A DNA stretch of 64,000 bases. Origin: Escherichia coli. Its GTDB lineage: Bacteria; Pseudomonadota; Gammaproteobacteria; Enterobacterales; Enterobacteriaceae. Of the stretch, positions 3,602 through 64,000 are shown piece after piece (position 1 is the first letter of the stretch; every line of letters starts with the position of its first letter). A model generated the notes under the pieces. It was not told the DNA's origin. It was given only the letters and a program-made list of their open reading frames with translations, and did no database searches. The stretch lies in NCBI RefSeq assembly GCF_016026235.1, contig NZ_CP065613.1. One strand, given 5' to 3'. The position numbers were made by a program, and so were the translations under genes.

Positions 3602-5587
3602 TTATGCGCGCTTCAGATAGCGTTTATACCAGCGTTCGAAGGCGACGGCGGGCATCGGTTTGGCAAACAAAAATCCTTGCCGCTCATTGATCCCGTTCTT
3701 GGTTAAAAAAGCATCTTCCTTTGCACTCTCTACACCTTCGGCGATCACCTGAAGATTCAATGCCTGGGCCACAGCGACGATCGCCCGGACCAGTGACTGC
3801 GAGACAGGTTGTTTGTGAATATCTCGAACAAAAACCTGGTCAAGTTTGATGGCATCGATCGGAAAGCGCGCCAGTTGCGAAAGTGAAGAGTAGCCGGTAC
3901 CAAAATCATCCAGATGCACTTGCGCACCTAGTTGGCTAAATTGTTGAATAACAGACAGTGCCAGTTCATCATTCTCAATCAGACAACTCTCTGTCAGTTC
4001 AACATCTATAGGGCAGTATTCAAAATTGAGTTCCTGGAGAACCTGTTTCAGGGCGGTGAAAATGGTTTGATCGGCGAGCTGACGTGCAGAAATATTTACC
4101 GCCACTCGCAGGTTTATGCCTTTATCCCGCCACTTTGCCACCTGGCGTACGACATCGAGAATCACCCAACGGCCTAAAGGCACAATTAGCCCTGACTCTT
4201 CGGCGTAGGAAATGAAGTCCAACGGTGGAATCAACCCACGTTCAGGTGACTGCCAACGTACTAGTGCTTCCAGACTGCGCACTTCGCCACGCCAGGTGAT
4301 TTTCGGTTGATAGTGAATAACCAACTGATCGTTTTCCAGTGCTTTACGCAAGTTGGTATCCAGCCAGAGATATTCAAATACCCGCTGATTCATTTCTGGA
4401 GTAAAAACGCAAAATTGTCCTCGTCCGCCTTCCTTCGCTGTGTACATTGCTGTGTCGGCGTGACGAATAATAGTCGCGCTGTCCGAACCATGTTCGGGAG
4501 AGAGCGAAATACCTACTGAACAGCTGGTATAAACTTCAATTAAACCAATACGAAAGGGGAGGCGTAAGCGGGTCAAAATTCGTGATGCCATTGCTTCCAG
4601 CGCGCTTTGTGAGGTATTGGATGCCAGTACCAGAAACTCATCGCCACCTGGACGCGCCAACACCTGGTCATGTTCGAGACAGCTTAAAATAGCCAATGAC
4701 ACGTCGCGTAATAACTGGTCACCAAACAAATGCCCATAGGCGTCGTTGACCTTTTTAAAATTATCCAAATCAAGATACACAACCCCAACTTTATTGTTAT
4801 CTGCCTGATTAATAGCGTGATCGATTAACTCCTGCATTGCGTTACGATTCGGCAGTCCGGTGATACTGTCGGTATTTGCCAGAATACGCAGTCGCTCCTG
4901 AGCGCGGCGCTCTTCGGTAATGTCGGTACCGGAACAGATTAAAAAAATCTCGTTTTTGCCACTGCCGCTGTGGACAAATTTATTGCGAAACAGAAACAGC
5001 CGCTGGCCTTTACGTGTTGGTATCCACAGTTCGACTTCATATGCATTGCCGCTTCGAAAAAATACACGGTTATTGCGCCTGGATGCCGCAGCTTCACGAC
5101 GGCTCATAAACAGTTTAAACACGCTTTGCCCAATGACGTCGTGTTCTTTCAACCCTGTGTAATCTTCACATAACCGATTGAAGCGTTGGATATTCCCCCG
5201 GCTGTCGAGAATCACTATTGCGGAATGTGCTTCAGAAACTACCTGCTCAGCAAAGGAAAGCCCGTGTGATAAATCACGAGCAACCGCCGGTGTGTCATGC
5301 CATGCAGACGCGTTGCCAGCCCATTCCCGTTTATTGATTTTTCGTCCTACCAGATGCACAGAAAGATCGCTTTCATCGACGGTCAGACTCATCATCAGGC
5401 TGGAGGTGATGACCGTCATTTCCCTGATGCGAGCAGCCTGTTCGGCAGATAACTGCAATGTACGATCAGGTTCTGTGGTTTCGGTGGTAGAAAAGCGCAA
5501 AACATCGCTGCTTTCCGTCAACCGCCAGTATGGATTGTGCGATCCGAGAAAGTTGTACAACGTTGTGGACTCCCTAACGGTTTTCAT
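3602..5587 (-). CDS. pdeR: c-di-GMP phosphodiesterase PdeR (PAS-GGDEF-EAL)
   Basis: 661 aa; degenerate GGDEF region followed by an EAL domain (EVLARW...DDFGTGYSSL). Confidence 0.9.
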   Translation of the reverse strand: MKTVRESTTLYNFLGSHNPYWRLTESSDVLRFSTTETTEPDRTLQLSAEQAARIREMTVITSSLMMSLTVDESDLSVHLVGRKINKREWAGNASAWHDTPAVARDLSHGLSFAEQVVSEAHSAIVILDSRGNIQRFNRLCEDYTGLKEHDVIGQSVFKLFMSRREAAASRRNNRVFFRSGNAYEVELWIPTRKGQRLFLFRNKFVHSGSGKNEIFLICSGTDITEERRAQERLRILANTDSITGLPNRNAMQELIDHAINQADNNKVGVVYLDLDNFKKVNDAYGHLFGDQLLRDVSLAILSCLEHDQVLARPGGDEFLVLASNTSQSALEAMASRILTRLRLPFRIGLIEVYTSCSVGISLSPEHGSDSATIIRHADTAMYTAKEGGRGQFCVFTPEMNQRVFEYLWLDTNLRKALENDQLVIHYQPKITWRGEVRSLEALVRWQSPERGLIPPLDFISYAEESGLIVPLGRWVILDVVRQVAKWRDKGINLRVAVNISARQLADQTIFTALKQVLQELNFEYCPIDVELTESCLIENDELALSVIQQFSQLGAQVHLDDFGTGYSSLSQLARFPIDAIKLDQVFVRDIHKQPVSQSLVRAIVAVAQALNLQVIAEGVESAKEDAFLTKNGINERQGFLFAKPMPAVAFERWYKRYLKRA

Positions 5588-41706: not shown

Positions 41707-42705
41707 TTATTTCAGCGTCATATGCGTGGCAACGGTAATATTCTGTGGTGACGGTTTTCCAGAAATTAAGCGGAATAATAACTCGCAGCTTTTTTGACCT
41801 AACTCCTGCGTCGGAACATCGATGCCGCCTGGTGCAGGCGTTAAAATAAACGACAGCGTTTCATTACTATAACCCACCACCGCTAACTGCTGCGGAATAG
41901 CAATATTTTTCTCTGCCGCCGCACGATAAATGCTCATTAATTTCAGGCTGTCAGTGGCAAACACTGCCTCAGGCAACGGTGACTGACTTAATAATTGCCG
42001 TGCTGCTTGCAGTGCTGTTTCATGGGTATAACCGCCATCAACAATCCATTCATCACGCACTGCAATATTATGCGCGGACAGACTTTGCTTATAGCCATTA
42101 ACGCGGTCAACCGAAACATGGACATCAAGCGACGCATGCAGACAGGCAATATTTTGATGCCCACTTTCAATTAATGCATCGGTCAACGCAATGCTGTCGC
42201 CAAAATTATCGGTATCGACAGAATAAACATGGGCATATTGACCTTCAACTTTGCCAATCACCACCACAGGAATATCGTATTTATCAAGTTGGGCAAAAAA
42301 TGACTCATCCGCTGGCGAACTTAGCATAATAATGCCTTTAATCATTTTCTGCTTAATTTTGCTTTCACATTTTTGTAAGTCTTCTGCCAGGTTGTGCGAC
42401 GTTTGTAATATCACGTCGAAACCTTCTTCTTCCGCTTTGGCGGTGATGGCATGTAGAACTTCTGAGAAAAACGGATTACCCGCCGTAGTTTTGGTCGAAC
42501 GGGTAGAAATCACCATAATGGCATCAAAACCCGAAGAGGTCAGCGCGCGGGCCAGCTTGTTTGGCTGATACTGTAATTCTTCAATGGCCCGTAACACTTT
42601 TTCGCGCGCTTCCGGGGAGATATTAGTTTGCTTATTCAGCACGCGTGATACGGTGGATTTTGATACGCCTGCAACCCTGGCAATATCATAAATAGTAGGG
42701 GACAT
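41707..42705 (-). CDS. ycjW: LacI-family transcriptional repressor YcjW
   Basis: 332 aa; N-terminal HTH ([21 protein letters not shown]) and periplasmic-binding-protein-like core. Confidence 0.9.
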
Positions 42706-42859
42706 AGGTCAGGAACTCCGTCCGAACGTGAATGCTGCACATCTTATGGAGTTCGCCCGTCGATGACAACACGGGCAGTTGATAATCAATGGCCTGGCCC
42801 CCACATTCATATCCTTACGAATGATTTTTTTCTGGTCTTCAGAGCAGCACAGGACAGCA

Positions 42860-44257
42860 ATGAAGCGACTTAAAAATGAACTTAATGCGCTGGTGAATCG
42901 GGGTGTCGACAGACATCTGCGCCTCGCCGTAACCGGACTAAGCCGCAGCGGCAAAACAGCGTTTATCACTGCGATGGTCAATCAGTTGCTCAATATTCAC
43001 GCCGGAGCACGCTTGCCGCTGTTAAGCGCGGTGCGTGAAGAGCGTCTGCTGGGCGTAAAACGCATTCCTCAGCGTGACTTTGGCATTCCGCGCTTCACAT
43101 ATGATGAAGGACTGGCGCAGTTATATGGCGATCCTCCCGCCTGGCCGACGCCTACGCGCGGCGTCAGCGAAATTCGCCTGGCGCTACGCTATAAATCGAA
43201 CGATTCGCTGCTGCGCCACTTTAAGGATACCTCCACGCTGTATCTGGAGATTGTGGATTACCCTGGCGAATGGCTGCTCGACCTGCCGATGCTGGCGCAG
43301 GATTACTTAAGCTGGTCGCGGCAGATGACAGGCTTGCTCAATGGTCAGCGCGGCGTGTGGTCGGCGAAATGGCGGATGATGTGCGAAGGTCTGGACCCGT
43401 TAGCGCCTGCCGACGAAAACCGACTGGCAGACATTGCCGCCGCGTGGACCGATTATCTCCACCACTGTAAACAGCAGGGGCTGCACTTTATTCAGCCTGG
43501 GCGCTTTGTCTTGCCGGGGGATATGGCAGGTGCGCCCGCGCTGCAATTCTTCCCGTGGCCGGATGTCGATGCCTGGGGCGAGTCCAAACTGGCGCAGGCC
43601 GATAAGCACACCAATGCCGGAATGCTGCGCGAGCGGTTTAATTATTACTGCGAGAAGGTGGTGAAGGGGTTCTATAAGAATCATTTTCTGCGCTTTGACC
43701 GCCAGATTGTGCTGGTGGATTGCCTGCAACCTCTCAACAGTGGGCCACAGGCATTTAATGATATGCGTCTGGCACTGACGCAGCTGATGCAAAGTTTCCA
43801 CTACGGGCAGCGCACGCTGTTTCGCCGCTTATTCTCGCCGGTTATCGACAAACTGCTGTTTGCCGCGACGAAAGCGGACCATGTAACGGTCGATCAGCAC
43901 GCCAATATGGTTTCATTACTGCAACAACTGATTCAGGATGCCTGGCAAAATGCGGCGTTTGAAGGGATTAGTATGGATTGCCTGGGGCTGGCCTCGGTGC
44001 AGGCGACCACCAGCGGCATTATTGACGTCAACGGCGAGAAAATTCCGGCATTGCGCGGTAACCGGCTCAGCGATGGTGCGCCTCTCACCGTTTACCCCGG
44101 TGAAGTTCCTGCGCGTTTGCCCGGTCAGGCGTTCTGGGACAAGCAAGGGTTCCAGTTTGAAGCGTTTCGCCCGCAGGTGATGGATGTCGACAAACCACTA
44201 CCGCATATTCGTCTTGATGCTGCGCTGGAATTTTTAATAGGAGATAAATTGCGATGA
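42860..44257 (+). CDS. ycjX: YcjX family P-loop NTPase
   Basis: ORF 42779..44257; start at MKRLKNELN (ATG 42860); Walker A GLSRSGKT. Confidence 0.85.
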
Positions 44258-45315
44258 CCGAACCGTTAAAACCACGTATTGATTTCGACGGTCCGCTGGA
44301 GGTCGATCAGAATCCAAAATTCAGGGCGCAGCAGACCTTTGACGAAAATCAGGCGCAAAATTTTGCCCCGGCCACGCTCGACGAAGCGCAGGAAGAAGAG
44401 GGGCAAGTCGAAGCGGTAATGGACGCAGCGTTACGTCCGAAACGCAGCCTGTGGCGCAAAATGGTGATGGGCGGGCTGGCTCTGTTTGGCGCAAGCGTTG
44501 TCGGGCAGGGCGTGCAGTGGACAATGAATGCCTGGCAAACTCAGGACTGGGTGGCGCTGGGTGGATGTGCCGCTGGGGCATTGATTATCGGCGCTGGCGT
44601 AGGTTCTGTGGTAACAGAGTGGCGGCGCTTATGGCGCTTGCGACAGCGCGCCCATGAACGCGACGAAGCGCGTGATTTATTGCATAGCCACGGAACCGGC
44701 AAAGGCCGCGCATTTTGCGAAAAACTGGCGCAGCAGGCGGGCATCGATCAGTCACATCCGGCGCTGCAACGCTGGTATGCCTCAATCCATGAAACGCAAA
44801 ACGACCGTGAAGTGGTCAGTTTGTATGCGCATTTGGTCCAGCCAGTTTTAGATGCCCAGGCGCGGCGCGAAATCAGCCGTTCGGCAGCGGAATCAACGTT
44901 GATGATTGCGGTCAGCCCGCTGGCGCTGGTGGATATGGCATTTATCGCCTGGCGCAATCTGCGTTTGATTAATCGCATCGCCACGCTGTATGGCATTGAA
45001 CTGGGGTATTACAGCCGTTTGCGCCTGTTCAAGCTGGTATTGCTGAATATCGCTTTCGCCGGAGCCAGCGAATTGGTGCGCGAAGTGGGGATGGACTGGA
45101 TGTCGCAAGATCTCGCTGCTCGTTTGTCTACCCGCGCAGCTCAGGGGATTGGTGCTGGGCTTCTGACTGCACGACTCGGGATTAAAGCTATGGAGCTTTG
45201 CCGCCCACTGCCGTGGATTGACGATGACAAACCTCGCCTCGGGGATTTCCGTCGTCAGCTTATCGGTCAGGTGAAAGAAACGCTGCAAAAAGGCAAAACG
45301 CCCAGCGAAAAATAA
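44254..45315 (+). CDS. ycjF: YcjF family inner membrane protein (DUF697)
   Basis: 353 aa; overlaps the ycjX stop. Confidence 0.85.
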
Positions 45316-45374
45316 TGCAATATCGGGTGCTGACCGGATATCTTTACGCCGAAGTGCCCGTTTTTCCGTCTTTG

Positions 45375-45392
45375 TGTCAATGATTGTTGACA
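45375..45392. promoter_or_regulatory. TyrR box in the tyrR promoter region
   Basis: TGTCAA-TGATTG-TTGACA, a palindrome matching the TGTAAA-N6-TTTACA pattern, 70 bp upstream of the tyrR ATG. Confidence 0.6.
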
Positions 45393-45462
45393 GAAACCTT
45401 CCTGCTATCCAAATAGTGTCATATCATCATATTAATTGTTCTTTTTTCAGGTGAAGGTTCCC

Positions 45463-55203: not shown

Positions 55204-56496
55204 CTGAGGAATCCCCAGAAAACAAGACAGGCATAGTGAGATGTGATCTAATTGATTGTGCTAACAATTTCAAGGAGATCACCACTATGCCTGCACGTTC
55301 ATTATGCCAAAATTTCCTTAACAATATACTGGCCCCTTTGCATCTTTACCGTCAAAAATCACTGATTGACGCAACTAATGCTGTAATAAATGGCGCTTCC
55401 CTCACACTTACCAGTATCGGGCGTCATTTAACCGGTACGGCATCAGTTAAAAACAAAATAAAGCGGGTGGATCGACTGTTGGGGAATCGACATTTGCAAA
55501 ATGAGGTTTCCACCATTTTTCAGCGAATTACCCAAAAGATTACGCGGGGAATGTCTCGTGTTGTGATACTCATTGACTGGAGTGCTTATCATGCCTCTCG
55601 TTTTCAGCTTTTGCGGGCAAGCCTGGCATGTGACGGGCGTTCTTTACCGTTGATGAGTTGTGTCGTTCCATCATCACAGACAGCGAATGCAGATGTACAT
55701 GAGCGTTTTCTGGAATCGCTTGCTGAGTGCTTTTCCCCGGGACTGATGTCATTGTTATTACAGATGCCGGTTTTCAGGGGCGATGGTTCCAACAGCTCCG
55801 CTCCCGTGGCTGGACCTATATTTGCCGGGTACTGGGCAATCATTATTACAATGTTGGTAATGGCTGGGAAAAGGTGTCGGACTCAGGCACAAAAGCATCA
55901 ACGACAGCAATTTATTTAGGTGAAGGCCTGCTGGGTCGAGATAAAAATGCACAACATGAAGGGCATTTTTATCTTTATAAAAGTAAGCCTAAAGGTCGTA
56001 GATTTAAACGCTCGAAGGAAAGAGCAACCAGACCATCGGTGACGGCTAAAGCTCGTACTGCCGGGAAATCACCATGGTTTATTTTCACAAACAGTACTGA
56101 GTTCTCGCCAAAACAGGTAATGAAATTATACAGCCGTAGAATGCAAATTGAGCAAAATTTCAGGGATGAAAAAAATCCTCGCTGGGGATTTGGACTACGG
56201 TTTGGTGCCAGTCATTCATCCGGGCGGGTCACGGTATTGAGTCTGATCGCAACATTAGCCAGTATCATTATGTGGTTAAGCGGTTTCAGCCTGGAAAACA
56301 AAGGGATACATCATAAATATCAGGCAAATACAGTGAAGCACAGGCGAGTCATCTCGTTATTAAAACTGGCGGAGAATGTGATTCGACATTCTCCACTCAT
56401 ACTAAACACACTGTCACTTGACGCAGGGCTGAAAGTTCTACAGCAACGGTATACCAATATGATAATGGTTTACTAAATTTTCTGGGGATCCCTCAG
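55204..56496 (+). mobile_element. IS10-like (IS4-family) insertion sequence, copy 1 (1293 bp)
   Basis: Terminal inverted repeats CTGAGGAATCCCCAGAAAA / TTTTCTGGGGATCCCTCAG; flanked by direct repeat AGATTGTCC(C). Confidence 0.9.
55287..56476 (+). pseudogene. IS10-like transposase, frameshifted (copy 1)
   Basis: Reading frame splits into ORFs 55197..55919 and 55727..56476; C4 run at 55735-55738 where copy 2 has C5. Confidence 0.85.
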
Positions 56497-57931
56497 AGAT
56501 TGTCCCCGGCGTTGCGACTCAGTGGAAAAGTAATGACAACCGTATCTGGACTTTTACCCTGCGCGATAACGCAAAATGGGCGGATGGCACACCGGTAACG
56601 GCGCAAGATTTTGTCTACAGCTGGCAACGTCTGGTGGACCCGAAAACGCTATCGCCATTTGCATGGTTTGCCGCGCTGGCGGGAATCAACAACGCACAGG
56701 CGATTATTGATGGTAAAGCTACGCCAGACCAGCTTGGCGTCACCGCAGTTGATGCCCATACTTTGAAAATTCAGCTTGATAAACCGTTGCCGTGGTTTGT
56801 GAATTTAACCGCTAACTTTGCCTTCTTCCCGGTGCAAAAAGCCAACGTAGAAAGCGGTAAAGAGTGGACGAAACCCGGAAATCTGATCGGCAATGGCGCT
56901 TATGTTCTTAAAGATCGCGTAGTCAATGAAAAACTGGTCGTGGTACCGAATACCCATTATTGGGATAACGCCAAAACGGTGCTGCAAAAAGTGACTTTCC
57001 TGCCAATTAATCAGGAATCCGCAGCCACTAAGCGTTACCTCGCGGGGGATATTGATATCACCGAATCCTTCCCGAAAAATATGTATCAGAAGCTGTTGAA
57101 GGATATTCCGGGGCAGGTTTATACGCCGCCGCAGCTCGGGACCTATTATTATGCGTTTAACACGCAAAAAGGGCCGACGGCAGATCAGCGCGTTCGCCTG
57201 GCATTAAGTATGACGATAGATCGCCGCCTGATGACCGAAAAAGTGTTGGGAACGGGCGAAAAGCCAGCGTGGCATTTTACACCAGATGTTACCGCCGGAT
57301 TTACGCCGGAACCTTCGCCGTTTGAACAAATGAGTCAGGAAGAACTGAATGCGCAGGCAAAAACTTTGTTGAGCGCAGCTGGTTATGGTCCGCAAAAACC
57401 GCTGAAGCTGACGCTTTTGTATAACACTTCAGAAAACCATCAAAAAATTGCGATTGCTGTAGCATCGATGTGGAAAAAGAACCTTGGCGTAGATGTTAAA
57501 TTGCAAAATCAGGAATGGAAAACCTATATCGATAGCCGTAACACCGGCAATTTTGATGTTATCCGCGCCTCGTGGGTGGGGGATTATAATGAACCCTCCA
57601 CTTTCCTGACATTATTAACGTCAACGCATTCAGGAAATATTTCACGCTTTAACAATCCGGCATACGACAAAGTTCTGGCCCAGGCATCGACGGAAAATAC
57701 CGTTAAAGCGCGTAATGCCGATTACAACGCGGCAGAAAAAATCCTCATGGAGCAAGCACTGATTGCACCAATTTATCAATATACCAATGGACGATTAATC
57801 AAGCCGTGGCTGAAAGGTTATCCCATTAATAACCCGGAAGATGTGGCGTACAGCCGGACTATGTATATTGTGAAGCATTGATGTGATGGGAACTGGCGTT
57901 ACCCTTGTGGATAACGCCAGTGATGTCTGAT

Positions 57932-58963
57932 TTAGCGCCCCTGTTCCGGCGGTGTAATGTTATCCATATACAGCGTCTGGCTGGGGAAGGCAAAGTCCGC
58001 GCCGTGTGACTGCACAATATCGATAATCTTCAAATAAACGTCTTGCTGTGCAGCAAGCCATTCAGCCCATACCGTGGTTTTGGTAAAGCAATAAACCATA
58101 ATATTCAATGACGAGTCGGCAAACTGGTTGAAATAAACCAGTAAGGTTTGTCGCTGGTCGATGGCCGGGTGATTTTTCAGCATCTCACGTACGGCTTCGA
58201 CAATAACGCCCACTTTTGCCGCATCCTCATAACGTAAACCAATGGTCGTGGTAATGCGGCGGTTGGTCATTCGTCCTGGGTTTTCTACGCTGATCGACGA
58301 AAACAGCGAGTTCGGTACGTACAATGGACGATTATCAAAGGTCGTAATTTTGGTAATTCGCCAGCCAATTTCCGCTACTGTACCTTCGATATTTCTGTCC
58401 GGTGAACGGATCCAGTCGCCAATACTGAAAGGACGGTCGAAATAGAGCATGATCCCGGAAAAGAAATTGCTCAGAATATCTTTACCGGCCATACCGACAG
58501 CCAGACCACCAATACCACCAAAGGTCAGCAAGCCAGAAAGGCTCATGCCGAAATGTTCGCCATAAAGCAGAACAAGCACCACAATAATGGTGATTTTGAT
58601 AATGCGCGACATAATCCGCGCACTGGTGATATCGCGACCTTTTTTAATCTGCTGTTTTTCAAACTGATTAATCAGCAAAAATAGCTTAATCGTCAGAATA
58701 ACCGCAATCAGGGACGTACAGATAAAATCGATAACGCCTGGGGTGATAAATTTGAGTTTATAGTTTTCTATAACATAATTAATAATGCTACCAACAGCAC
58801 TGATAATTATGGTGTAGATTAAAAATTGCACCGCATGGAATAAAAAACCTTTTCTTTTACGATTTCCGCGGCGAAACCAAAAGCTCATCAGAATCAATGC
58901 TGCGCAGCTACCGAAAATAATGACCAGATTAAGCGCATTATTTGTAAACAGTTCAGCGATCAT
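57932..58963 (-). CDS. ynaI: MscS-family mechanosensitive channel
   Basis: 343 aa; N-terminal transmembrane helices and MscS beta-domain. Confidence 0.9.
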
Positions 58964-59206
58964 TGTTTTATCAGGCTCCTCCAGATAATTGTCGTCATGC
59001 CGGAAACCCCTGGCGGGGCTATTTTACCGCGACAATTCATTCAGATCATCAATAGTCAGGGAAGGAAGTAGCAACATTAGCTAACTAATCAATGCGTTGA
59101 TTGTAAATCCAGCTAAGAGGTGAGGTTTTCAGAGCAGACAACGGTGAAATGTCATGGTATTGTTACGTTTAGGTAACAAGAAATTTGTCTGCACAAGGAT
59201 TACATC

Positions 59207-59464
59207 ATGATTATGGCGAAACTGAAGTCAGCGAAAGGGAAGAAATTTCTCTTTGGTTTGTTGGCGGTTTTCATTATTGCGGCGTCGGTTGTGACTCGCG
59301 CGACTATCGGCGGCGTTATAGAACAGTACAATATTCCGCTGTCTGAGTGGACGACATCAATGTATGTGATTCAGTCATCGATGATTTTTGTTTATAGCCT
59401 GGTTTTTACTGTGTTGCTGGCAATCCCGTTAGGAATTTATTTCCTTGGTGGCGAAGAGCAGTAA
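59207..59464 (+). CDS. ynaJ: Small inner membrane protein YnaJ (DUF2534)
   Basis: 85 aa with two hydrophobic segments. Confidence 0.8.
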   Translation: MIMAKLKSAKGKKFLFGLLAVFIIAASVVTRATIGGVIEQYNIPLSEWTTSMYVIQSSMIFVYSLVFTVLLAIPLGIYFLGGEEQ

Positions 59465-59473
59465 GTAAAAAAT

Positions 59474-59493
59474 AGGCCCGATAACTCGGGCCT
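59474..59493. terminator. Bidirectional intrinsic terminator between ynaJ (+) and uspE (-)
   Basis: Stem GGCCCG-ATAACT-CGGGCC; minus strand continues with ATTTTTTAC. Confidence 0.65.
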
Positions 59494-59513
59494 TGTCAGT
59501 TATTGAAGAGTCG

Positions 59514-60464
59514 TTAATCGTCTTCTTCGTCATCCAGCTCAACGGGTGTCTGATACTGGTCAGGTTTAATGACCAGCAGGTCGCAGCGAAGATGATCAAT
59601 CACCTGTTCCGCCGTGTTGCCGAGGAATGCTGCTGAAATACCGGTACGTCCTACCGTGCCCAGAACCACAATCCCCGCCTGTAAGTGCTCCGCCAAATCA
59701 GGAATCACCTCTTCTGGCAGACCTTTTTCTACGTGCGTCATGTTTTCATTAATGCCGAATTTCTGCCGCAGAGCTTTCATTGCCAGCAAATGTTGCCCAC
59801 GAATGGCATCGTTATAAACGCTCGGATCAAATTCCGGCAGTTCAATCGCGATATTAATTGGCGTTACTGGGTAAGCGCCAACCAGATGAACTTCGGTATG
59901 GTTGACTTGTTCTGCCAGTTCGATCGTCTCTTTGACCAGTTTTTCATTGAGCGCATTATGATACGGCTCTTCACTGGCGAGATTCACCGCCACCAGCGCC
60001 TTACCTCCTTCCGGCCACGGCTGGTCTTTCACCATCCACACCGGGCTTGGGCATTTGCGTAACAGATGCCAGTCCGTTGGCGTAAAAATCACCGCTTCCA
60101 GACGGTCATGTTGGTGCGCCATTTTTAGCACCAAATCGTGCCCGCCGCTGATCACTTCCTGAATGATGGCTTCGAAAGGACGGTTATGCCAGACCACTTT
60201 AATTTCAATGGGAACGCCAGCATTGAGATAATATTTTGCCTGCTCGTGGATCCAGGCTGTACGCTGGCTGATGACGCCCTGACGCATAGCCGTACGTTCG
60301 TCCGGGGAGAGCAGGGTGGTCATTTCGTATGAGAAGTCATAGATCGGCAAAAAGGCTTTAATTTTGCCACCAATCCGTTGATGTAAATAAACAGCTCGCC
60401 GCAATGCTGGTTGGTCGTCCTGGTTAGGATCGATAACAACGAGCATGTTCTGATACATAGCCAT
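59514..60464 (-). CDS. uspE: Tandem-domain universal stress protein E
   Basis: ORF 59514..60491; probable start [12 protein letters not shown]; two UspA domains. Confidence 0.9.
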
Positions 60465-60615
60465 ACAGGGTCTCCTTACAACAACTGTCAACGCAGTTTG
60501 TAATTAAAAGATTAACCCATATCTGGTGAATGAAACAGTGATGAACCTTCTGCCAGATCAATAAATCAGAAAAATTTAATGATATGACAGAAGGATAGTG
60601 AGTTATGCGGAAAAA

Positions 60616-61368
60616 TCAGGCAACGTTACGCGTATGACCAGCAAGCTGGGCCAGCGCATCGTTATTTTCGATGGTGATGTATTTACCTTTGACTGCCAGC
60701 ATACCGCTTTTCTGGAAGCGACCTAGCAGACGGCTGATGGTTTCTACCGTCAGGCCCAGATAGTTACCGATATCGCCACGAGTCATCGTCAGGCGGAATT
60801 CACGAGGGGAGAAGCCGCGTTGGGCAAAACGACGGGACAGGTTGTAGATGAATGCAGCCAGACGTTCCTCGGCATTTTTCTTCGACAACAGCAAGATCAT
60901 GTCCTGATCGCCTTTGATTTCACCGCTCATCAGACGCATCATCTGCTGACGCAGATTCGGCATTTTACCGGACAAATCGTCCAGCGTTTCGAACGGGATT
61001 TCACATACCATCGAGGTTTCCAGCGCCTGAGCGAAGCTCGGGTGATGGCCGCTGCCGATGGCGTCAAATCCCACCAGGTCGCCAGCTAAATGGAAACCAG
61101 TGATTTGCTCGTCGCCTTGCTCAGTGATGGTATAACTTTTAATCGTACCGGAGCGGATGGCATAAAGCGATTTAAGTTCATCACCAGCCTTAAACAGCGT
61201 CTGGCCTTTCTGAATAGGCTTCTTCCGCTCAATGATATTATCAAGCTGATCAAGCTCATGTTCGTTGAGTGTGAACGGGATGCAAAGCTGGCTGATGCTG
61301 CAATCCTGGCAATGGATAGCACAACCGCCAGACTGAATGCGCCGTATAATTCGCTTTTCCGGGATCAT
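60616..61368 (-). CDS. fnr: Anaerobic global regulator FNR (CRP family, [4Fe-4S])
   Basis: ORF 60616..61425; start at [29 protein letters not shown] (N-terminal Cys cluster); C-terminal HTH. Confidence 0.95.
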
Positions 61369-61387
61369 AGGTCTGCTCAAGCCGTAA

Positions 61388-61401
61388 TTGATATTTGTCA
61401 A
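61388..61401. promoter_or_regulatory. FNR-box-like site in the fnr promoter (candidate autoregulation site)
   Basis: TTGAT-ATTT-GTCAA versus consensus TTGAT-N4-ATCAA; 20-33 bp upstream of the fnr ATG. Confidence 0.5.
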
Positions 61402-61497
61402 TTTTAACATCTTTTTAGGGAGCAAGTAAGTCTAAGCAAACCTTAACAGCAGAGAATTCCGATATTAGATGTAAATATATGTCTATCTATTTGAAAA

Positions 61498-61515
61498 CCC
61501 TTAAGTTGTTAAGGG
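61498..61515 (-). terminator. Intrinsic terminator downstream of ogt
   Basis: Stem CCCTTAA-GTTG-TTAAGGG; minus strand continues with TTTTCAAA. Confidence 0.6.
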
Positions 61516-61562
61516 TAACTTTACATAAAAGTGTGAACAAGCTGGCACAAATTGTTTAATGT

Positions 61563-62078
61563 TTACAGCAAAAGATAACCTTCGTGGCGCAATAACCACT
61601 CTTTTCGCTGAACTCCGCCTGCATATCCGGTCATGGTGCCGTTTCGGCCAATAACCCGATGGCAAGGTACGACGATGCTGATGGGATTCGATCCGTTTGC
61701 CGCACCAACGGCACGCGCCGCGCCAGGGCGGCCCAATTGTTCAGCCAGTTGGCCGTAATGCATTACCTGCCCGCAGGGGATAGTGCGTAGAGTTTTCCAG
61801 ACTTCGCGCTGAAATGGCGTCCCCCCTGTGGCAGTGGGAAGCGTATCAATAATGCTAAGATTACCGGCAAAATAATCACGAAGCTTGTCGCTTAAACCGC
61901 CTGGGTTGGTGGCAGAAATGCGCTCATAGCCTTCTTTGCGATAATGGATGTCCAGCAGCTGCACCATGCGTTCGCTGTACTCTTCCCATTCAACCGCCCG
62001 CAGGCGAAATTGCTCATCGCAAATCACCCACAGTGGACCCAGTGGCGTGGCAATTTTTTCTTCAAGTAATCTCAGCAT
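61563..62078 (-). CDS. ogt: O6-alkylguanine-DNA alkyltransferase
   Basis: 171 aa; active site PCHRV. Confidence 0.93.
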
Positions 62079-62112
62079 CCGTTCTCTCTTAAGACAAACG
62101 TGGGTAAATCCC

Positions 62113-63406
62113 CTGAGGAATCCCCAGAAAACAAGACAGGCATAGTGAGATGTGATCTAATTGATTGTGCTAACAATTTCAAGGAGATCACCACTATGCC
62201 TGCACGTTCATTATGCCAAAATTTCCTTAACAACATACTGGCCCCTTTGCATCTTTACCGTCAAAAATCACTGATTGACGCAACTAATGCTGTAATAAAT
62301 GGCGCTTCCCTCACACTTACCAGTATCGGGCGTCATTTAACCGGTACGGCATCAGTTAAAAACAAAATAAAGCGGGTGGATCGACTGTTGGGGAATCGAC
62401 ATTTGCAAAATGAGGTTTCCACCATTTTTCAGCGAATTACCCAAAAGATTACGCGGGGAATGTCTCGTGTTGTGATACTCATTGACTGGAGTGCTTATCA
62501 TGCCTCTCGTTTTCAGCTTTTGCGGGCAAGCCTGGCATGTGACGGGCGTTCTTTACCGTTGATGAGTTGTGTCGTTCCATCATCACAGACAGCGAATGCA
62601 GATGTACATGAGCGTTTTCTGGAATCGCTTGCTGAGTGCTTTTCCCCCGGGACTGATGTCATTGTTATTACAGATGCCGGTTTTCAGGGGCGATGGTTCC
62701 AACAGCTCCGCTCCCGTGGCTGGACCTATATTTGCCGGGTACTGGGCAATCATTATTACAATGTTGGTAATGGCTGGGAAAAGGTGTCGGACTCAGGCAC
62801 AAAAGCATCAACGACAGCAATTTATTTAGGTGAAGGCCTGCTGGGTCGAGATAAAAATGCACAACATGAAGGGCATTTTTATCTTTATAAAAGTAAGCCT
62901 AAAGGTCGTAGATTTAAACGCTCGAAGGAAAGAGCAACCAGACCATCGGTGACGGCTAAAGCTCGTACTGCCGGGAAATCACCATGGTTTATTTTCACAA
63001 ACAGTACTGAGTTCTCGCCAAAACAGGTAATGAAATTATACAGCCGTAGAATGCAAATTGAGCAAAATTTCAGGGATGAAAAAAATCCTCGCTGGGGATT
63101 TGGACTACGGTTTGGTGCCAGTCATTCATCCGGGCGGGTCACGGTATTGAGTCTGATCGCAACATTAGCCAGTATCATTATGTGGTTAAGCGGTTTCAGC
63201 CTGGAAAACAAAGGGATACATCATAAATATCAGGCAAATACAGTGAAGCACAGGCGAGTCATCTCGTTATTAAAACTGGCGGAGAATGTGATTCGACATT
63301 CTCCACTCATACTAAACACACTGTCACTTGACGCAGGGCTGAAAGTTCTACAGCAACGGTATACCAATATGATAATGGTTTACTAAATTTTCTGGGGATC
63401 CCTCAG
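62113..63406 (+). mobile_element. IS10-like (IS4-family) insertion sequence, copy 2 (1294 bp, intact)
   Basis: Same terminal repeats as copy 1; flanked by direct repeat GGTAAATCC(C); same orientation as copy 1. Confidence 0.9.
62196..63386 (+). CDS. IS10-like DDE transposase (IS4 family)
   Basis: 396 aa; motifs IKRVDRLLGNRHL, ITDAGF, YSRRMQIEQNFRD, YQANTV match IS10 transposase blocks; SD AAGGAG 9 nt before the ATG. Confidence 0.88.
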   Translation: MPARSLCQNFLNNILAPLHLYRQKSLIDATNAVINGASLTLTSIGRHLTGTASVKNKIKRVDRLLGNRHLQNEVSTIFQRITQKITRGMSRVVILIDWSAYHASRFQLLRASLACDGRSLPLMSCVVPSSQTANADVHERFLESLAECFSPGTDVIVITDAGFQGRWFQQLRSRGWTYICRVLGNHYYNVGNGWEKVSDSGTKASTTAIYLGEGLLGRDKNAQHEGHFYLYKSKPKGRRFKRSKERATRPSVTAKARTAGKSPWFIFTNSTEFSPKQVMKLYSRRMQIEQNFRDEKNPRWGFGLRFGASHSSGRVTVLSLIATLASIIMWLSGFSLENKGIHHKYQANTVKHRRVISLLKLAENVIRHSPLILNTLSLDAGLKVLQQRYTNMIMVY

Positions 63407-63554
63407 GGTAAATCCCCGGACCTATCGGCAGACCAACAAGATACCACGCCAGCAACATCAGCAGCCATACCACCAAAAAGATAAGCGGATAGGGCAAGAC
63501 TAACGAATAGTAAGTACCCAGTTTCGCGTCTGGTTTGTCGCAGTCTGATAGCAT
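63348..63554 (-). CDS. Small hydrophobic ORF whose native C-terminus is replaced by IS-derived codons
   Basis: ATG at 63552-63554 (MLSDCDKPDAKLGTYYSLVLPYPLIFLVVWLLMLLAWYLVGLPIGPGIYP...); the frame runs into the IS end at 63406; without the IS it would end ...GIYPRLS ~10 bp before the ogt start; no clear SD. Confidence 0.25.
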   Translation of the reverse strand: MLSDCDKPDAKLGTYYSLVLPYPLIFLVVWLLMLLAWYLVGLPIGPGIYPEGSPENLVNHYHIGIPLL

Positions 63555-64000
63555 AAAGCGATTTTTTGATTTTTCTGCCTGAAGAAATGAGGGCAAGCCA
63601 TCACATGGATCGAGGGTGGGATAATTCCAGTCAGTGAAATTTTACCGTAGGCTATCTGTTATTTGATTCTGTGGCGTGATAGCCGCCAGACACCACTGAA
63701 CTCGTCACTCATTCCCCAATCCCGGCGAGAATGTGGTTATTTACAGAGCTAAAAATGAATAAAAAATAGAGCCTGTCGACATCCGCCAGACTCTACAGTA
63801 CACACAGCAGTGCATCCTCGTCTTAAATCCGGCCTGGGGTCCTTGTGACCGGTGACAGTGTTATAACGGTTTTACCCATCCGTTGCCAATTTTCTTCAGT
63901 GACAGATTTCACGAAAATATAAGTTAAATCATTTGTCTTGTGATTGCATAATCATGCATCGTTAATCGACGAGTAAATTTACCGGGCGAGTAGCCCGTTC

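Follow-up and report, generated by a model that had tools for sequence, protein, structure and literature searches.

A missing C in the transposase gene of an ISEc60 copy in Escherichia coli mppA: homopolymer under-call or recent mutation

In the stretch of Escherichia coli DNA analysed here (64,000 nucleotides of contig NZ_CP065613.1, assembly GCF_016026235.1; hereafter the window), ISEc60, an IS10-like element of the IS4 family, is present as two direct copies. The copy inserted in mppA is one C short in a homopolymer run within its transposase gene, and as written its reading frame is split. The leading explanation, to which we give about an even chance, is that the run was under-called by a single base and the error was never corrected. 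A real and recent loss of the base is only slightly less probable, and readings in which the shortened tract has a function of its own are improbable. The two copies and their boundaries are the following.

55204..56496, + strand: ISEc60 copy 1, 1293 bp, in mppA and in the same orientation as mppA; two differences from copy 2
55204..55222, + strand: left terminal repeat (IRL) of copy 1, CTGAGGAATCCCCAGAAAA, the same as the IRL of copy 2
56478..56496, − strand: right terminal repeat (IRR) of copy 1, CTGAGGGATCCCCAGAAAA, with one mismatch relative to IRL, the same as the IRR of copy 2; GATC at 56487..56490
55194..55203, no strand: left target-site duplication (TSD) of copy 1, 10 bp, AGATTGTCCC
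56497..56506, no strand: right TSD of copy 1, 10 bp, AGATTGTCCC
62113..63406, + strand: ISEc60 copy 2, 1294 bp, canonical sequence, at the ogt/abgT junction
62103..62112 and 63407..63416: TSD pair of copy 2, 10 bp, GGTAAATCCC
62196..63386, + strand: intact transposase gene of copy 2, 396 aa, with C5 at 62644..62648

The 19-nt terminal repeat CTGAGGAATCCCCAGAAAA was found at four sites (55204 on the + strand, 56496 on the −, 62113 on the + and 63406 on the −), against a chance expectation of 0.01. Each copy in the window has a perfect 10-bp TSD of its own, which indicates that both are simple insertions. The mppA frame at copy 1 stops on a TGA that comes from the IS terminus (55205..55207). In both copies the transposase frame is open 5' of its ATG, across IRL and into the flank (55197..55286 and 62100..62195).

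The element is a known one. Copy 2 is 100% identical over 1294 bp to elements in eleven E. coli records whose product is named 'IS4-like element ISEc60 family transposase' by NCBI/PGAP, and its exact transposase is already recorded as an ISEc60 family transposase. This protein matches the IS4 family model NCBIfam NF033591 with 360.5 bits (cut-off, 152) and Pfam DDE_Tnp_1 with 74 bits over residues 98-302; copy 1 meets the IS4-family transposase models only when the missing C is put back. By motif position, the catalytic triad is D97 (LIDWS), D160 (ITDAGF) and E289 (MQIEQNF). A PDB sequence search with the transposase gave no meaningful match. Copy 1 departs from the named ISEc60 (WP_001111632.1) by one synonymous base and by the length of the run, of which only the C4 makes a functional difference.

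Several features relate ISEc60 to IS10. The IS10A and ISVsa5 transposases share 36% amino acid identity with that of ISEc60 over 93% of the protein, and the catalytic residues of IS10, D97, D161 and E292, are close in number to those of ISEc60. The termini of ISEc60 resemble those of IS10 and Tn10 as well, starting with CTGAG..ATCCCC. The right end of ISEc60, GGGATCCCC, contains a GATC (Dam) site (56487..56490), whereas the left end, GGAATCCCC, has none at the corresponding place (55209..55213), and IS10 also has GATC at just one of its two ends. This one-ended arrangement may make the activity of the ISEc60 ends Dam-dependent. The two elements differ in the target. A 10-bp TSD was found at all 11 simple ISEc60 insertion sites examined, lying within a G-run/N4-7/C-run target, whereas IS10 generates 9-bp TSDs and has the target hotspot NGCTNAGCN. 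The targets of the 11 sites are quasi-palindromic, of the form G3-6 / N4-7 / C3-5. In its choice of target, ISEc60 thus resembles the preference of IS186 and not the 9-bp hotspot of IS10.

The differences between the copies and their effects on the reading frame are located as follows.

55731..55741, + strand: T4-C4-G3 tract (consensus T4-C5-G3), with a C-run at 55735..55738 that is one base short
55287..55919, + strand: 5' ORF (ORF1), 152 native residues including D97, then 58 out-of-frame residues and a stop at 55917..55919
55727..56476, + strand: 3' ORF (ORF2), in the native frame from residue 151, with D160 and E289
55325, + strand: synonymous T in the codon for Asn13 (consensus C), shared with four other assemblies of this clone

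A preliminary description of this DNA had reported that copy 1 lacks one base of a poly-C tract, and alignment of the copies bears this out, with exactly two differences: T55325 against C62234, and one C fewer. The tract reads TTTTCCCCGGG in copy 1 (T at 55731-55734, C at 55735-55738; C4) and TTTTCCCCCGGG in copy 2 (C at 62644-62648; C5), in the shared context TTTTCCCC(C)GGG, and the earlier placement of the loss at 55731..55740 is correct. The transposase frame is split, and the ORFs described for its two parts (55197..55919 and 55727..56476) are both in the program-made ORF list. The annotated start is the ATG at 55287, in agreement with the start that PGAP gives the 396-aa WP_001111632.1 in the copy at the same site in strain RMDEC364. 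The C-run corresponds to codons 150-151, and the frame breaks after residue 152, within DDE_Tnp_1, parting D97 from D160 and E289; neither ORF can therefore be a transposase. A Pfam search detected no domain in the 210-aa product of ORF1, and that of ORF2 matches only the C-terminal part of DDE_Tnp_1 (profile positions 77-176). One uninterrupted ORF with all three DDE residues is absent from copy 1 as written and present in copy 2. The claim that copy 1 is inactivated therefore stands for the sequence as written, which makes no transposase; the deletion itself may be biological or an error of the sequence.

The second difference had been described as synonymous, which is the case: it falls at the third position of codon 13, AAT in copy 1 and AAC in copy 2, both encoding Asn. 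The T is carried by UGFA01 and JARKNJ01, in long contigs, and by two short-read contigs that span mppA into the IS. Since these four other assemblies of the same clone have it, the T is real.

The same relatives bear on the C-run. UGFA01000002.1 is identical to window positions 42273..62670 over 20,399 bp, T55325 included, and the sole difference is the C-run, which is C5 there. JARKNJ010000002.1, which covers the mppA copy only, belongs to a slightly more distant member of the clone (2 SNPs in 9.9 kb) and has the same insertion, the T and C5. The presence of C5 in both assemblies at the same insertion makes C5 ancestral for copy 1 and C4 a singleton, private to the window among the three assemblies that span this insertion. 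UGFA01 has C5 in both copies, which comes close to the observation that the preliminary description had named as decisive against a loss, namely C5 in both copies on resequencing, although these assemblies derive from other DNA preparations. Look-ups with YcjN and YcjT, made for extending the UGFA01 comparison past 20 kb, returned about 50,000 blocks each, from unrelated lineages.

In the databases, a 91-bp query with C4 had no exact match in 69 records that hold ISEc60, at 155 places (92 in complete E. coli genomes and 63 in plasmids). Exact-pattern scans of a collection of species-representative genomes gave nothing for the C4 tract, nor for C4 to C6, and a scan of metagenomes gave one contig, with C5.

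Several results favour an artefact. UGFA01 is identical over 20,399 bp save for the C-run, and JARKNJ01 also has C5; none of the 155 places of ISEc60 in plasmids and complete E. coli genomes matches the C4 query exactly; and one-base homopolymer deletions, this very C4 included, occur in visibly error-prone long-read assemblies. A lone discrepancy in homopolymer length inside a repeat, with everything else perfect, is the residual error expected of a long-read consensus. The ends of the IS are 532 bp and 762 bp away from the run, which sits in a multi-copy repeat where, judging from assembly practice, short-read polishing would be expected to be unreliable, and a residual long-read error there could survive it. 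Copy 1 is an ordinary insertion of a cut-and-paste element into mppA, with intact ends and a 10-bp TSD, and on this reading its true sequence would be that of an intact, autonomous ISEc60 like copy 2.

Against an artefact stands the accuracy of the window's other homopolymers. None of the 89 other runs of at least five bases in the 20.4 kb common to UGFA01 differs, and between 20655 and 48900 all 32 testable long runs have the length that occurs most often in 14 other E. coli loci. Within the two IS copies, the 13 other runs of at least five bases are correct, both A7 runs included. All other indels of the window relative to RMDEC364 fall outside established genes: one is in a hypothetical ORF of 35 aa, another is a 12-bp change at the end of ycjD that keeps the frame, and the third is an edge effect of the alignment next to the IS110 insertion. 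Copy 2, from the same assembly and with the same local context, is C5, which means that no fully penetrant context-specific error is at work. Two further points argue against an artefact: C4 exists elsewhere as a real, inherited allele, and an indel in ogt, C6 versus C7, also separates members of this clone. The ogt run is at 61821..61826 (C6 in the window, + strand); it is C7 in the short-read, same-clone contig CABWDS010000108.1, which has a truncated Ogt of 112 aa. That strain has an empty mppA site, which indicates that copy 1 was inserted after copy 2 in this clone.

The tract varies in other ISEc60 copies. Three other assemblies have the exact 210-aa frameshift product on record; it lies there at other loci, and every copy has a 10-bp duplication to itself. 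CP026877.1 contains two ISEc60 copies with C4 and a third in which G4 is shortened to G3, and comparison with an E. coli of 99.1% identity shows three more one-base homopolymer deletions in the 2.9 kb beside one of these copies (around uidA). We considered the C4 copies of CP026877.1 as evidence that C4 elements transpose and rejected them as untrustworthy, given an assembly so riddled with homopolymer deletions. UGBT01 contains several further one-base homopolymer deletions. At a locus near murJ, C4 is found in both UGBG01 and UGBT01 (NCTC assemblies), whose mppA-site copies are C5, and the agreement of the two argues for a real C4 allele there. In the Illumina-derived Logan contigs SRR7591051 and SRR12584083, which hold a 98%-identical subtype of ISEc60 at one locus and are three substitutions apart, C4 is the only indel; it is a real, inherited allele.

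Lengths other than C4 and C5 also occur. C6 is the only indel of a copy on an E. albertii plasmid, and further variants are C6 in NCTC assemblies and T3 in E. coli OK1357. A 94%-identical relative has G3 shortened to G2 at the tract; it was rejected as a case of conserved frameshift at the same spot, since the copy is decayed, with indels at five sites (six gapped bases). The ISEc60 tract therefore tends to change in length, in nature as well as when a consensus is called from long reads, in a sample that is biased because several copies were found by searching with the frameshift product itself. Several public long-read assemblies with ISEc60 (CP026877.1, UGBT01 and CP091399.1) have dense one-base homopolymer deletions, and in one of them the bases at CCGG sites are garbled; a frameshifted IS copy in such an assembly is not to be taken at face value.

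The alternative that survives best is a real slipped-strand loss of one C in T4C5G3, which would have taken place recently, after the insertion and after the split from UGFA01, and would have left copy 1 dead and non-autonomous. We regard it as a serious possibility, somewhat short of an even chance. It accords with the otherwise flawless homopolymers of the window and with the variation of natural copies at the tract (C4 in the Logan contigs and near murJ, C6, T3 and G2), some of which were found via the frameshift product. The break parts D97 from D160 and E289, and IRL, IRR and TSD are intact. It is weakened by the C4 being private among the three assemblies across this insertion and, on a rough estimate, by the absence of any SNP in 20.4 kb relative to UGFA01, which allows only a short time for one particular run of five bases to mutate. 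The preliminary description had called a homopolymer slip the likely cause and added sequencing error as a caveat; the caveat gains from the C5 of the sister assemblies, and the slip takes second place, narrowly, to the under-call.

The description of copy 1 as a non-autonomous element with a defective transposase and intact IRL, IRR and TSD holds only if the deletion is real. In that case copy 1 could move only if the transposase of another copy reached its ends. Copy 2 had been presented as the donor, but each chromosome record of the related strains examined has ISEc60 at 6-38 places, and with an element that is multi-copy, copy 1 need not depend on copy 2 as its sole source of transposase. 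Work on Tn10 points to a preference of IS10 transposase for acting in cis. Such a preference is likewise reported for IS10, among other IS elements (PMC12903888); rescue in trans would thus be inefficient, which also speaks against the real loss as far as it invokes such rescue. Copy 2 lies only 5.6 kb away, and one may speculate that it might have some action on copy 1. C4 copies occupy several loci and have separate TSDs; two of these copies come from the error-prone CP026877.1, and the C4 of the window arose in place.

Three readings would give the shortened tract a function. First, T4C5G3 could be a hypermutable spot at which the transposase is toggled off (C4, C6, T3) and potentially back on, and C4 copies may retain slight activity by slipping −1 on C_CCG_GGA; we hold this to be very unlikely. 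If the reading of a hypermutable or slipping tract were true, ISEc60 would carry a built-in attenuation switch.

Second, and just as improbable, the 210-aa product of ORF1 could, if the deletion is real, bind the ends of ISEc60 without cutting them and so dampen the activity of other copies. InsA of IS1 and OrfA of IS911 are trans inhibitors and provide the model for such a role. The sole point in its favour is that the native start is kept in ORF1, along with 152 native residues that precede the catalytic core. The domain search of ORF1, however, revealed none that binds DNA, the aberrant tail of 58 residues may destabilise the product, and the proposal depends on the deletion being real. To our knowledge, there is no precedent in the IS10 group for a trans inhibitor of this kind.

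Third, the C4 could be decoded by −1 frameshifting, which would make copy 1 an attenuated but autonomous element, or the tract could be a reversible on/off switch of the transposase. This concerns the following feature.

55736..55742, + strand: C_CCG_GGA heptamer, formally X_XXZ_ZZN and in the zero frame, made by the deletion; judged non-functional

A −1 slip on this heptamer gives ...ECFSPGTDV..., the same as copy 2, and hence the exact wild-type protein. In favour are the C4, C5 and C6 alleles in the databases and the C4 copies at several loci with their own 10-bp TSDs, although two of these copies come from the assembly full of homopolymer deletions. A run of five bases is short for a contingency locus, which counts against a switch. 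As in copy 1, elements of the IS1 and IS3 families with programmed −1 frameshifting have overlapping ORFs in the 0 and −1 frames with an X_XXZ_ZZN heptamer in the overlap; theirs is a conserved, functional layout with efficient A/U-rich motifs and stimulators (PMC4066793), whereas copy 1 is a singleton with a poor motif and no stimulator. In E. coli, GGN codons in the A site and mixed pyrimidine/purine heptamers are poor shifters, motifs without a stimulator reach just 2-10 times the background of 0.055%, and adding the IS3 pseudoknot did not make C_CC.G_GG.C shift (Sharma et al. 2014, PMC4066793). No stimulatory RNA structure is evident in the 119 nt downstream of the heptamer, whose folding energy of −28.4 kcal/mol is no better than that of shuffled sequences (mean −32.4; z = +1.1). 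With C_CCG_GGA in the poor GGN, mixed pyrimidine/purine class (PMC4066793), a two-ORF layout that is not conserved (no exact C4 match in 69 records, 155 places) and a C4 that arose in place on a C5 background, this is the least probable of all the readings, and we dismiss programmed frameshifting.

The site of copy 1 deserves attention in itself. The mppA target GGGGAGATTGTCCCCGG (55190..55210) is a hotspot for insertions, with the core GGGG-AGATTGT-CCCC. In this clone and in RMDEC364, ISEc60 lies there in the + orientation; FDAARGOS_943, UGBG01 and UGBT01 have it in the − orientation. IS186/IS421, a different element of the IS4 family with a 370-aa transposase, uses the same GGGG-N7-CCCC site of mppA in many E. 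coli and Shigella genomes, and a truncated MppA fragment of 80 aa is recorded in 937 blocks. We considered the mppA insertion of RMDEC364 as orthologous to copy 1 and rejected this, given that the flanks differ by 0.6-1.7%, the IS copies are nearly identical, and the hotspot is used in both orientations and by IS421; it is probably an independent insertion. FDAARGOS_943 matches the 2.5 kb flank at 100% and has both IS copies in the opposite orientation; its other IS content differs.

In UGBT01 and UGBG01, an ISEc60 copy (4240..5533) has the mppA target on one side and the reverse-complemented ogt-side target on the other, with no duplication. These mismatched flanks imply that the segment mppA'-ynaI-ynaJ-uspE-fnr-ogt was inverted there by recombination between two opposed copies. 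Elsewhere in the window, an alpha/beta hydrolase gene is interrupted by an IS110-family element (50870..52319) that encodes a DEDD transposase of 398 aa (51098..52294). The clone is marked by this insertion: UGFA01, JARKNJ01 and several short-read assemblies have it, and RMDEC364 and FDAARGOS_943 lack it. At the 3' side of copy 2 (63539..64000), the match to RMDEC364 ends past a 133 bp remnant of abgT, which appears to have been truncated or replaced by other DNA.

Taken together, our results describe a known element whose transposase frame is broken in an ordinary way, by one base, and the break itself may not be real; what is seen here may be regarded as known in kind. Frameshifted IS copies are routine in the IS-rich genomes of E. 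coli and Shigella. If the C4 is an artefact, the consequence would be an annotation error only, in which an intact transposase is labelled a pseudogene, as C4 would make PGAP call a frameshifted pseudogene. Homopolymer calls in multi-copy IS elements of long-read assemblies need checking, and sister assemblies serve this purpose. For the biology of ISEc60, the 10-bp duplication at G-run/C-run targets and the mppA hotspot that it has in common with IS186/IS421 are of modest value to the specialist.
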